DNA of 45,917 nt, taken from sequence record MN840485.1; one strand, given 5' to 3'. Source of the DNA: Escherichia phage 2725-N35. Shown in pieces: positions 28,990 to 32,077 of this stretch. The notes under the pieces are model-generated. The model searched no databases. It worked only from the letters and a program-made list of their open reading frames with translations, and was not told the origin of the DNA. The position numbers and the translations under genes are program-made. Position 1 is the first letter of the stretch; each line of letters begins with the position of its first letter.

Positions 28990-29045
28990 GTGAAGTAACT
29001 ATACGCCATCCGTGGCTCTAGCGTTTAGCAATTCGTGCTATTTAA
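28990..29045 (-). promoter_or_regulatory. P-box promoter for the 28592..28966 moron
   Basis: AAATAGCACGAATTGCTAAAC, 22 nt, TATAGTTACTTCACACAAAC; the TerL stop codon (TAG) lies within the motif. Confidence 0.6.
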
Positions 29046-30609
29046 TTCCCGCTATGCGCATTAGTCGCGCTTTGGGGTCATCTGAGATATTGAGAACAAG
29101 GTTTACCGCCATTGTCATGGTATCAATTTGGTCGTCGTGCTTATGCGAGTCGTCTGCAGTGAAAGCCGCAATCTCAGTGAGTAATCCGCTTAGCCACGGT
29201 GCTGACTCCGGAAGAACGACGTTACCAGCCTTAATCTGTGGCAATGCGCTCATTACCCTAGTTAGCTTGTCGTTATCCGGTACGTATGGCTCTATCGGTG
29301 TTCGCATAACCCTGCCAGCTGATTGAATAAGGCCGATACCAGACGCTTTCTTCTCGATAATAATCTTTCGGAGGATACCATCCGACTGACTGGTTGCCCT
29401 TGATTTCTTCTCGAAGTCCAGTAGTTCAGCTTCCAATTCCGGCGCTTCCCACTTACCTCTGCGCTGGTCTATCAGGTAAATCCTAGCATCCTTATAGCCC
29501 CATAACTGAAGCACGGAGAAGTCACTATAACTCTTTGTGGTCATCGCAGTATCGCAAGTTATGAATCTATAATCGTACTTGGCTGGAGGCCTGAATGTAT
29601 CACTAAGACGCTGGAACCAGTCTACGTTAATCAGATTGCCACCAAGTGCTACAGGTTCTTGTTGATACTGACTTAGGAAAGTGTACGGGTCAGCATCCCA
29701 CATAGCCATCAAGTCTTCTATTGATTCCTTTGCCGGAAAGTAGCTGTAATACTTAACTCCATCCCGCTCTACGAATGGCGAAGAAAGAACATCATCAATA
29801 AATTGTTGCTTAATCCAATCAGGAAGCGTGTCTACGTAATCCTCTGTGACTATGGCTGGAACTTTCACTACGTCGAACTTGATGCCCATTTGTCCAGACT
29901 CCATGAAGTGGCTAGTATCCAGAACATGAAGTCTTTGCTGAACTGCAAGTATTGGCGTTTCCTTTCCCTTTACTGAGCTAGCTCGACGTGAACGAATTGT
30001 GTTCTTGAGAAGCATATTGACAGCCTCTCTTCTTACATTACTTAGCGCGTCATCAGGTTTTAGTGGGTCATCCAGCATTATGCAACCACTATAATCGTCA
30101 GTCATGTAGCCACCCCTACTTCCCGTCACCTGTCCAGCCATCGCCTTAGATATAGACTCAAACCTAACTTTGCCACTCTCATCCAGCACCTGAATCTCGT
30201 CATCCCTGCATGTTCCAAAGGTGCAAGGCCAAAGCTCCTGGAACTCCTTTGACTTAATTAGGTCACGGACGCGCTTGGAGTTGCGCTTAACCAATGAGTC
30301 AGAGAATGACAAACTAAGATTCCTGACCTTCTTAATCTTAATCATGCTATACACAGGGAAGTGAATGCTAAAAAGTTCGGTTTTGGCAGATCCAGGAGCT
30401 ATGTTTATGATGGTGTCCTTTCTCTTTCCCTCAAGAATCTCATCTATAACACGGCATAGGTACTTAGTATGCCAATTCATTTTGAATCTCTCGCCCTGAG
30501 TTATCTGGAAGAAACACCGCAAGAACCACTCGAAACTATGCTCAGAGATGGCCTTGATAGCCATTTTTTCTGCATACGTCAGTTCATCCCACACGATTAA
30601 ATCACTCAT
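29038..30609 (-). CDS. Terminase large subunit
   Basis: Walker A-like 'IAPGSAKT', Walker B 'CIMLDDP', C-terminal nuclease-like region; start chosen at ATG after GGAGG (track ORF extends to 30690, overlapping the HNH gene). Confidence 0.85.
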   Translation of the reverse strand: MSDLIVWDELTYAEKMAIKAISEHSFEWFLRCFFQITQGERFKMNWHTKYLCRVIDEILEGKRKDTIINIAPGSAKTELFSIHFPVYSMIKIKKVRNLSLSFSDSLVKRNSKRVRDLIKSKEFQELWPCTFGTCRDDEIQVLDESGKVRFESISKAMAGQVTGSRGGYMTDDYSGCIMLDDPLKPDDALSNVRREAVNMLLKNTIRSRRASSVKGKETPILAVQQRLHVLDTSHFMESGQMGIKFDVVKVPAIVTEDYVDTLPDWIKQQFIDDVLSSPFVERDGVKYYSYFPAKESIEDLMAMWDADPYTFLSQYQQEPVALGGNLINVDWFQRLSDTFRPPAKYDYRFITCDTAMTTKSYSDFSVLQLWGYKDARIYLIDQRRGKWEAPELEAELLDFEKKSRATSQSDGILRKIIIEKKASGIGLIQSAGRVMRTPIEPYVPDNDKLTRVMSALPQIKAGNVVLPESAPWLSGLLTEIAAFTADDSHKHDDQIDTMTMAVNLVLNISDDPKARLMRIAGIK

Positions 30610-31114
30610 CTTTCCTCCCATGGTTTTTATGATACCCAAGAATAAATTCAGCCCTCGCCCTGACAATCGACGCGTCGTGAATATTATCAAAGAATCCCAA
30701 GTGAATATTCTCTCCGTCCTTTTTTATTTGAGCCGCATACTTACCAGTCCTGGATACTATGCAGACTCCGGTAACCCCGGTCTTATTCCTCGAATTTATT
30801 GATTGATTCTTTCTATTTTCCTGAATTGTAACTAACCTAAGGTTTTCTATCCTGTTATCATTTCTAACATGATTTATATGGTCAATTTGCATACCTTCTG
30901 GTATTGCTCCGTTATGCATTTCCCAGATTATTCTATGAACCCAATATTTTTTACCCGGCATGTTTACCCTAACATACCCTAGGCTTTTATCAATGCCGCC
31001 AACCTCTTTCCCTATGAATCTTCGCTGTATCCTTCTCCTTCCAAGCTTCTCGCTATCGTAATCTTTCCAGTAAATCTTCCCATCTTTGTATTCAAAATAA
31101 TCATGCCAATTCAT
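30602..31114 (-). CDS. HNH endonuclease (homing-endonuclease-like)
   Basis: 'IDHINHVRNDNRIENLRLVTIQENRKNQ' HNH motif; inserted between terS and terL. Confidence 0.8.
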   Translation of the reverse strand: MNWHDYFEYKDGKIYWKDYDSEKLGRRRIQRRFIGKEVGGIDKSLGYVRVNMPGKKYWVHRIIWEMHNGAIPEGMQIDHINHVRNDNRIENLRLVTIQENRKNQSINSRNKTGVTGVCIVSRTGKYAAQIKKDGENIHLGFFDNIHDASIVRARAEFILGYHKNHGRKDE

Positions 31115-31182
31115 ATCGCCACCTCGTTAGTTTGTTGGGCCCATTATCTCATTGATTGGGCCTCTTCTTTTAACAATAATTG

Positions 31183-31689
31183 CTATAACTTACTAATAAC
31201 AGACTCCAGCGCTTCCTTCATGCTATCAACGTCGTTAGCTGTGGAGTTGTTGCTAATGGTAATCTCCTGCGGCTTATCAATCCCTAGCTCTTTACCAACG
31301 ATTGTGGAGTTGATGATGCCTGCAACGCCAAGCTGATACTTCTGCTCGTAAATTACGTTATCAATAAATTCCATCACATCAGAGTATCCAGCCTCTGTAC
31401 GCCAGCGTGCGAATCTATTGATGTTAACACCCATGAAGAGCGCCAGACCTGTTAATGTGAATACTCGAGGCTTGTGCACTAAACTCTCGCTAACCACGCC
31501 CTGGAATGCCGCCGTCTCAATGGCTTTGATTGCCTCATTCTCAGCCCATGAAAAGTATCTCACTGCAAAGTCAAATACCTCCTCTGGAGTGCACTTGCGG
31601 TTGATTGCCACCATAGCAATATCGCCATACTTCTTGTTATAAAGCGCCTTGAAATTTCCATCACCCATCTTTAATGCTGCTTTGCTCAT
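31183..31689 (-). CDS. Terminase small subunit, putative
   Basis: 168 aa directly upstream of HNH/TerL; first gene after a strong promoter. Confidence 0.6.
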   Translation of the reverse strand: MSKAALKMGDGNFKALYNKKYGDIAMVAINRKCTPEEVFDFAVRYFSWAENEAIKAIETAAFQGVVSESLVHKPRVFTLTGLALFMGVNINRFARWRTEAGYSDVMEFIDNVIYEQKYQLGVAGIINSTIVGKELGIDKPQEITISNNSTANDVDSMKEALESVISKL

Positions 31690-31732: not shown

Positions 31733-31760
31733 GAAAAAAAGCCCTCAAGCGAGGGCTAAA
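31733..31760 (-). terminator. Rho-independent terminator ending the tRNA/small-gene transcript
   Basis: AGCCCTCGCTTGAGGGCT then T7 on the minus strand. Confidence 0.75.
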
Positions 31761-31801: not shown

Positions 31802-31984
31802 TTACTTTCGCTCACGAACGTAAGCTACCAGGAATTTGTGAGTGTCATGGTCAGCACCTGACATCCCTTTTACTTTCGCTACCGCATCCTCAGCGCTGAT
31901 TGCGGCAACTGACGCGATGTAATCTTGAGTGCAATTCTTGCACGAGCGGCCCATTAAGCGAATGGACAGTTTCACATCCCACAT
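31802..31984 (-). CDS. Hypothetical small protein
   Basis: 60 aa; strong SD AAGGAG 7 nt upstream; immediately follows the tRNA. Confidence 0.55.
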   Translation of the reverse strand: MWDVKLSIRLMGRSCKNCTQDYIASVAAISAEDAVAKVKGMSGADHDTHKFLVAYVRERK

Positions 31985-31999
31985 AATGAACTCCTTTAT

Positions 32000-32077
32000 T
32001 GGCGCTCCGCACTGGATTCGAACCAGTAACCTACGACTTAGAAGGTCGTTGCTTCTGTCCTGTTGAGCTAGCAGAGC
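32000..32077 (-). tRNA. tRNA-Arg(UCU): tRNA-Arg (anticodon UCU) with encoded CCA
   Basis: Minus-strand GCTCTGC...ACGAC-CTTCTAA-GTCGT...ACTGG-TTCGAAT-CCAGT-GCGGAGC-G-CCA: 7-bp acceptor, 5-bp anticodon stem with UCU, canonical T-arm. D-arm is irregular. Confidence 0.75.

Follow-up and report, generated by a model that had tools for sequence, protein, structure and literature searches.

A putative free-standing HNH-AP2 homing endonuclease gene between the small and large terminase genes of an Rtp-like coliphage

What is an HNH endonuclease gene doing between the two terminase genes of a coliphage? The preliminary description of this DNA left two answers, a mobile homing endonuclease or a nuclease needed for packaging. 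Terminase neighbourhoods are a recognised hotspot of homing endonuclease genes (HEGs), and homing endonucleases with HNH at the N-terminus and AP2 at the C-terminus are well established from phages, cyanobacteria and protists (PMC10448857). A megablast search with the region identified the window (the whole stretch of DNA analysed, 45,917 nucleotides) as an Rtp-like coliphage of the Drexlerviridae/Braunvirinae, the nearest database relatives being ~92% identical here. We consider it likely, with a probability of roughly 80%, that the gene is a free-standing HNH-AP2 HEG lodged in the terS-terL intergenic slot of a headful-packaging E. coli siphophage. Cleavage activity, target site and actual homing are only inferred, and a literature search on Rtp-like phages found no report of cleavage or homing for any allele of the slot. 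The features on which the argument turns are the following.

31183..31689, minus strand: terS, the upstream flank (small terminase, P22 gp3-like; Pfam GP3_package 9.7e-13, phrog_606 4.3e-56)
31115..31182, minus strand: cassette leader, 68 nt from the terS stop to the HNH ATG
30602..31114, minus strand: putative free-standing HNH-AP2 homing endonuclease gene, allele 'A', 170 aa
30602..30609, minus strand: ATGAGTGA overlap of the HNH 3' end and the terL 5' end, 8 nt (terL start 30609-30607, HNH stop 30604-30602)
29038..30609, minus strand: terL, the downstream flank (large terminase, 523 aa from ATG 30609; phrog_38 4.6e-107, Terminase_6C 8.8e-08)

The profile matches of the two flanking genes bear out the claim that the HNH gene lies between terS and terL; 3' of terL come a small virion protein gene and then the portal. 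The reported 89-nt overlap of terL with the HNH gene is another matter. It is arithmetically right for the longest terL ORF, which begins at a TTG at 30690, but biologically it is an artefact of longest-ORF calling. ATG 30609 (MSDLIVWDEL...) aligns with the annotated terL starts of Rtp, SU57, DTL and BEK2 and with the calls on metagenomic contigs, and in HNH-less relatives the homology to the window starts exactly at this codon. Since both coincide with ATG 30609, the real overlap is of 8 nt, the HNH stop codon TGA being formed by terL nucleotides 6-8, an ordinary case of translational coupling. The start is preceded by GGAGGAAAG, and within CATGGGAGGAAAGATGAGTGATTTAATC there is a strong Shine-Dalgarno, GGAGGA, 5 nt 5' of the ATG, also in favour of this start; the terL Shine-Dalgarno lies inside the HNH 3' end. 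Annotations should place the terL start at ATG 30609, for a product of 523 aa, in preference to the upstream TTG; several public records err in the opposite direction, about 120 nt late. The records of FP, TR2 and Rao1 begin terL ~120-130 nt 3' of the conserved ATG, probably an annotation error that the HEG insertion brought about; the annotated terL, of 480 rather than 523 aa in FP and TR1, is separated from the HNH gene by a seemingly non-coding stretch. The late-started annotations are as follows.

L001:1502-2944, terL of FP
L014:1232-1896, terL of TR2 (cut at the locus end)
L016:2010-2674, terL of Rao1 (cut at the locus end)

Two further elements were seen upstream of terS. Between a 60-aa ORF (31802..31984) and terS, an intrinsic-terminator-like hairpin, AGCCCTCGCTTGAGGGCT, followed by TTTTTTT, occupies 31740-31757 on the minus strand; transcription arriving from upstream would stop there, just ahead of the terS-HNH-terL operon. 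A sub-threshold Rfam match to the sRNA AaHKsRNA20 (E 0.56) overlaps this hairpin and is probably merely the terminator. Farther upstream, at 32000-32077 on the same strand, there is a tRNA-Arg(TCT) (ARAGORN; Rfam tRNA 56.3 bits), and SU57, SCS31, RobRod40 and 12210I have a tRNA-Arg annotated at the equivalent place.

The HNH gene itself, given in the preliminary description as 30602-31114 and 170 aa, was recovered as an ATG-initiated ORF of that extent that includes the motif QIDHINHVRNDNRIENLRLVTIQENRKNQ, and its product matches Pfam HNH_3 (E 7.6e-23, 80.3 bits against a cut-off of 24.8) and the HNH endonuclease family phrog_99 (2.5e-59). Three regions can be told apart in the protein.

aa 1-58: N-terminal beta-hairpin region
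about aa 57-103: HNH (H-N-N) nuclease core, with D78-H79, N91 and N103
about aa 113-160: AP2-type DNA-binding domain, assigned from structure and homologues

A search with HNH_3 and AP2 profiles had been proposed as a check, and only the first of them matched: Pfam AP2 gave no match to the isolated C-terminus even at E 10, so that the AP2 assignment draws on the structure and on homologues, among the best 120 full-length of which ~10 carry both Pfam AP2 and HNH_3. An alignment of 58 homologues shows no variation at six residues (H60, R61, D78, H79, N91 and N103), and the window protein keeps all of the H-N-N catalytic set. The AF2 model, confident along the whole length, has an I-HmuI-like fold with an AP2 domain. 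Here are found, then, the beta-beta-alpha-metal core of the HNH_3 type, with its catalytic His and metal-binding Asn residues, and an extra module predicted to bind DNA sequence-specifically over a long target site, as in HNH_3/I-HmuI-like homing endonucleases. A search of 5.8 billion proteins gave one 99%-identical cluster, all others being at most 54% identical to it. No HNH paralogue was found within the window, where 30602..31114 is the sole HNH gene.

The comparison with characterised nucleases places the gene within a known range. I-HmuI nicks one strand, and its C-terminal DNA-binding modules are helical/helix-turn-helix and not AP2. It is encoded within a group I intron, whereas the window gene stands free in an intergenic slot. 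In sequence, the window protein is only ~21-27% identical to this enzyme of Bacillus phage SPO1 (PDB 1U3E). The HNH-AP2 HEGs (the family of Magnani et al. 2004; 'IPA-HNH' of phage ICP1, PMC10448857) have the same order of HNH and AP2 and, like the window gene, are free-standing, sporadic and often located near essential genes, the terminase included, at boundaries of genetic exchange (PMC10448857). IPA-HNH is too divergent for Pfam HNH_3 (PMC10448857), whereas the window protein is a canonical HNH_3 member; the Drexlerviridae subfamily would belong with these HEGs by its pattern, homing being putative.

Other known nucleases in such a position are packaging factors. HK97 gp74, the 80alpha/SLT proteins, GVE2 HNHE and Skunavirus HrdP are likewise HNH-superfamily nucleases beside terminase genes, and a terminase-associated HNH that cooperates with TerL to cut concatemers, and is required for virions, would fit a gene that adjoins the terminase genes, appears to be co-transcribed with them and is translationally coupled to terL. 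Homing and packaging roles are, moreover, not mutually exclusive for terminase-adjacent HNH genes (Barth et al. 2023, PMC10448857). The packaging nucleases of the gp74 type are described as Zn-binding proteins of ~100-130 aa that are universal and essential in cos clades and non-specific in vitro (PMC3592412). The window protein, by contrast, combines HNH_3 with AP2 and is not of the classical HNH family; it has one Cys, zero CxxC motifs and hence none of the Zn-binding CxxC pairs of the small [CxxC]2 proteins. In its clade DNA is packaged by headful (pac) filling, not from cos sites: headful packaging is reported for Rtp, T1, MSK and TR1, and the window is placed with them by its clade and by its P22 gp3-like terS.

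Distribution weighs on the same question. The coding-strand alignment of the window, FP and Rtp against SU57, DTL and SCS31 gives a clean indel. At the empty sites terS ends in TAA and is followed by a spacer of 16-19 nt (CAATAAGAGGGTATAACA) and the terL ATG; at the occupied sites there are a terS ending in TAG, the 68-nt leader and an HNH ORF that overlaps the terL ATG. In the HNH-less SU57, DTL, SCS31, IME253 and IMM-001 homology resumes at the terL ATG. A query with the empty junction matched 124 phage records, about 12 of which have the cassette leader, and an expansion of ~520-560 nt was seen among these matches in the Rtp and FP/BEK2/BEK3 types only. The site is empty in the Veterinaerplatzvirus set (43 isolates), DTL, SCS31, IME253, Msk and others; in ES the slot is also filled, behind a leader that has diverged, and IMM-001 shows the empty site in the same background. 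SU57, DTL, SCS31, IME253, IMM-001 and the 43 Veterinaerplatzvirus isolates are thus viable without the slot gene, which is neither universal nor essential in the clade. Together with the protein family, the missing Zn site and headful packaging, this contradicts the packaging alternative, which we regard as highly improbable. The comparison with insertion-less relatives that the preliminary description called for has instead revealed sporadic presence and absence at one precise site, as is typical of HEGs, and favours mobility; the universal synteny that was to speak against a mobile element is not what is found, the empty sites being those of viable close relatives.

We also looked in the flanks for positions that would mark carriers. 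All occupied genomes end terS in TAG and all unoccupied ones in TAA (17 genomes), and apart from the third base of this stop no flank column was diagnostic of occupancy in these genomes, the terL row of 12210I being left out of the comparison. Carrier-specific 'immunity' substitutions fixed in the flanks were thereby discarded as a candidate.

If the gene is mobile, it should have a history of its own, and the comparison of carriers points in this direction. The window genome is ~85-86% identical to FP, BEK2 and RobRod40 over ~81% of its length, and in these pairs, which involve four A-type genomes that are not independent of each other, the cassette/HNH ORF is 95.7-97.3% identical against a genome median of 86.5-88%, which ranks the HNH gene in the top 0.2-1.2% of all 513-nt genome windows. 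Both terS and terL are ~89-93% identical. The values between carriers, obtained by Nei-Gojobori analysis, are given below.

HNH (allele A): dS 0.06-0.21, dN/dS 0.03-0.15
terS: dS 0.46-0.67, dN/dS 0.02-0.03
terL: dS 0.38-0.49, dN/dS 0.03-0.06

The dS of the HNH gene is 2-6x below that of the flanking genes, and in each pair of carriers the cassette is younger than the genes on both sides of it. Because both dS and dN/dS are low, the HNH gene is functional and under purifying selection, and coalesces more recently than the essential genes at its sides. The flanks of the window are 0.89-0.93 identical to those of carriers and 0.86-0.92 to those of empty-site phages; they are no closer to the former than to the latter, and occupancy therefore does not track flank phylogeny. 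Metagenomic copies of the cassette are apparently one phage sampled repeatedly.

These values also bear on the idea that the gene is what remains of a HEG in decay or without activity, which drift has fixed and which is kept only since its 3' end supplies the ribosome-binding site of terL. The cassette has indeed replaced the native terL Shine-Dalgarno (the GAGGG spacer), and an imprecise loss would harm terL expression. A remnant would hardly be expected, however, to have all its catalytic residues intact, an ORF of full length in all carriers, a dN/dS matching that of its essential neighbours and an AF2 model confident throughout, and we give this explanation very little credence.

Mosaic genomes provide a second view of the movement of the cassette. 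In TR2, CY1 and Rao1, terS is IMM-001-like for ~425 nt (84-94% identity) and then Rtp-like in its last 75-100 nt, and this Rtp-like sequence runs on through the leader and the HNH gene into terL, for at least 600 nt of the latter (88-94% to Rtp/SU57 against 54-70% to IMM-001). In ES, terL is IMM-like only beyond ~125 nt. These are two independent mosaics with recombination breakpoints at the cassette, within ~100 nt of it. The same split is visible in the BLAST table of the TR1 paper, where the best match of terS is IMM-001, that of terL is FP and that of the HNH protein is of 47%. A young element within mosaic tracts is what horizontal spread of a HEG would leave, although low dS and mosaic boundaries could also be explained by ordinary homologous recombination without stimulation by a nuclease.

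The slot does not always hold the same gene. Four HNH types, with pairwise identities of 28-43%, occupy it in different phages.

Allele A, 170 aa: window, FP, BEK2/3, RobRod40
Allele B, 158 aa: Rtp (rtp20)
Allele C, 158 aa: JeanPiccard, ES
Allele D, 168 aa: TR1-3, CY1, Rao1

The depositors of BEK2, BEK3, Rao1 and JeanPiccard label the slot gene a homing endonuclease. The window protein is ~50% identical to rtp40 and SU57_00071, encoded at other loci, against 41% to rtp20 of the same slot, and homologues at this level of ~50% are found at other Drexlerviridae loci beside helicase, exonuclease VIII (exoVIII) and tail genes. RobRod40 has four HNH genes against one in the window. Of its extra HNH_3 genes, one follows terL, one separates the tail terminator gene from the major tail gene and one adjoins the primase gene; metagenomic relatives of allele A have an extra HNH_3 gene ~680 nt upstream of terS (L020:745-1248). 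The load of HEGs differs widely among close relatives, and these extra HNH_3 genes are absent from the window.

L013:1636-2112, additional HNH_3 gene of RobRod40
L013:10611-11096, additional HNH_3 gene of RobRod40
L013:29450-29929, additional HNH_3 gene of RobRod40

In three other phages the slot carries small ORFs unrelated to the HNH genes.

L008:1869-2018, BEK6, 49 aa
L009:1860-1955, AugustePiccard, 31 aa
L010:1895-1996, UALMA_PCEc3, 33 aa

The ORFs of AugustePiccard and UALMA_PCEc3 look hydrophobic. All three begin at the usual position of the terL start, with the native spacer kept, and, their translations being unrelated, we do not take them for decayed HNH remnants. As such non-HEG ORFs also sit there, the terS-terL slot is a general hotspot for the insertion of accessory genes. 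This agrees with a more passive origin of the HNH gene, as a 'moron'-like accessory nuclease that entered a permissive hotspot by illegitimate recombination and spread by ordinary homologous recombination, with no site-specific homing into the slot, and that serves, for example, phage or satellite exclusion or the degradation of host DNA. Strong purifying selection is compatible with a function of benefit to the phage, and domains derived from HEGs have been co-opted in conflicts between phages and satellites (PMC10448857). An I-HmuI-like HNH joined to a sequence-specific AP2 is, however, the architecture of a site-specific HEG, the family is scattered beside other essential genes in the manner typical of HEGs, and the young age of the cassette relative to its two flanks, seen in all carrier pairs, and the breakpoints within ~100 nt of it in two independent backgrounds also count against a passive passenger, which makes this origin unlikely in our view.

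The leader is the part of the cassette that the alleles have in common. It holds the HNH Shine-Dalgarno (GAGGTG) and a GGCCCA/TGGGCC inverted repeat and is found in exactly 12 phage records, each time between terS and an HNH gene. Its nucleotide identity is 90-97% among A, B, D and JeanPiccard, with ES below this range, and the first five codons of the ORF (MNWHD) are common to alleles A, B and D. The leader evolves at about the rate of the backbone, while the ORF bodies behind it have been swapped or have diverged. We considered that it could be a promoter, a terminator, a known RNA family or a conserved hairpin, all with negative results: there was no sigma-70 promoter on its coding strand and no match to an Rfam family, its hairpin was not significant against shuffled sequence (z -1.5) and the leader alignment (8 sequences) had 0 covarying pairs.

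There are exactly two copies of the 12-mer ATGAATTGGCAT in the window, both on the minus strand and 634 nt apart, at the start of the HNH gene (31103-31114, MNWH...) and inside terL (30469-30480, ..KMNWH..); shuffled sequences lead one to expect 0.01 matches. A junction scar or duplication was rejected as its origin, MNWxD being the N-terminus across the HNH family, other loci included, and the pair is probably a coincidence, though statistically unusual. It may nevertheless act as recombination microhomology.

A shared leader in front of exchangeable ORFs allows a bolder interpretation, in which the slot is a 'landing pad' of the Braunvirinae. The leader and the first ~20 nt of the ORF would serve as homology arm or regulatory element, at least four HNH-AP2 enzymes (28-43% identity) would compete and displace one another, each perhaps cutting the genomes of rival alleles as well as empty sites, and the resident nuclease would also drive the exchange of terS and terL between genera, as in TR2, whose terS comes from an IMM-001-like phage and whose terL comes from an Rtp-like one. 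We put this forward as a speculation with a small chance of being right; if true, it would offer a tractable coliphage model for competition between HEGs and for HEG-driven mosaicism of the packaging module. A comparable exchange is known from elsewhere: according to Sandegren, Nord and Sjoberg in 2005, free-standing HEGs of T-even phages reportedly swap at one locus, SegH/Hef replacing mobC/mobE. In both cases divergent or non-orthologous endonucleases share one intergenic site between essential genes, and there are empty-site relatives and co-conversion of the flanks. The T-even HEGs are of GIY-YIG or different HNH families and belong to myoviruses, whereas the slot alleles are all HNH_3-AP2 with a common 68-nt leader and common N-terminal codons.

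We return to the homing endonuclease, the mobile alternative of the preliminary description, which is well supported by presence/absence polymorphism, by a cassette younger than its flanks, by breakpoints at the cassette and by an I-HmuI-like fold with AP2. The gene would be transcribed late, together with terS and terL, since the leader has no promoter and a terminator-like hairpin lies upstream of terS, and the Shine-Dalgarno in the leader would serve its translation. The AP2 domain and N-terminal beta-hairpins of the protein would recognise an extended target, for which the intact empty junction (terS stop, spacer and terL start) of a co-infecting HNH-less relative is the likeliest candidate; we infer a target spanning the junction because no flank substitution marks carriers and the insertion itself replaces the spacer. 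The sole diagnostic flank position, TAG or TAA at the terS stop, would fit such a target. The I-HmuI-like HNH site would then nick or cut the empty junction, and recombinational repair from the HNH+ genome would copy the 573-nt cassette with variable lengths of the terS and terL flanks (co-conversion). The carrier genome would be immune since the insertion replaces the spacer, and the cassette would come cheap to the phage, the overlap with terL giving this gene a Shine-Dalgarno and translational coupling.

The gene is thus of a known type of HEG, its near-identical GenBank copies (BEK2/BEK3) being already so annotated, and the locus reveals no new mechanism; the allelic series and the mosaicism of the terminase modules are in keeping with the known tendency of HEGs to lie at boundaries of genetic exchange. 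The slot gene is best annotated as a putative homing endonuclease and not as a packaging factor. The locus is a clear natural case of a HEG at a recombination boundary within an essential phage operon and, because empty sites, four allelic endonucleases and mosaic carriers all exist in cultured coliphages, it could serve as an easy experimental system.

Two database records with a ~82% nucleotide match to the coliphage terminase region are ascribed to other hosts, PP134917.1 (Pseudomonas phage PsgS01F) and MG065688.1 (Campylobacter phage A110b). The record length (44,679 bp) and match statistics of PsgS01F are identical to those of the E. coli phage UALMA_PCEc3 (PQ314493.1), which suggests that the PsgS01F and A110b labels stand for contaminant coliphages or mis-assigned hosts.
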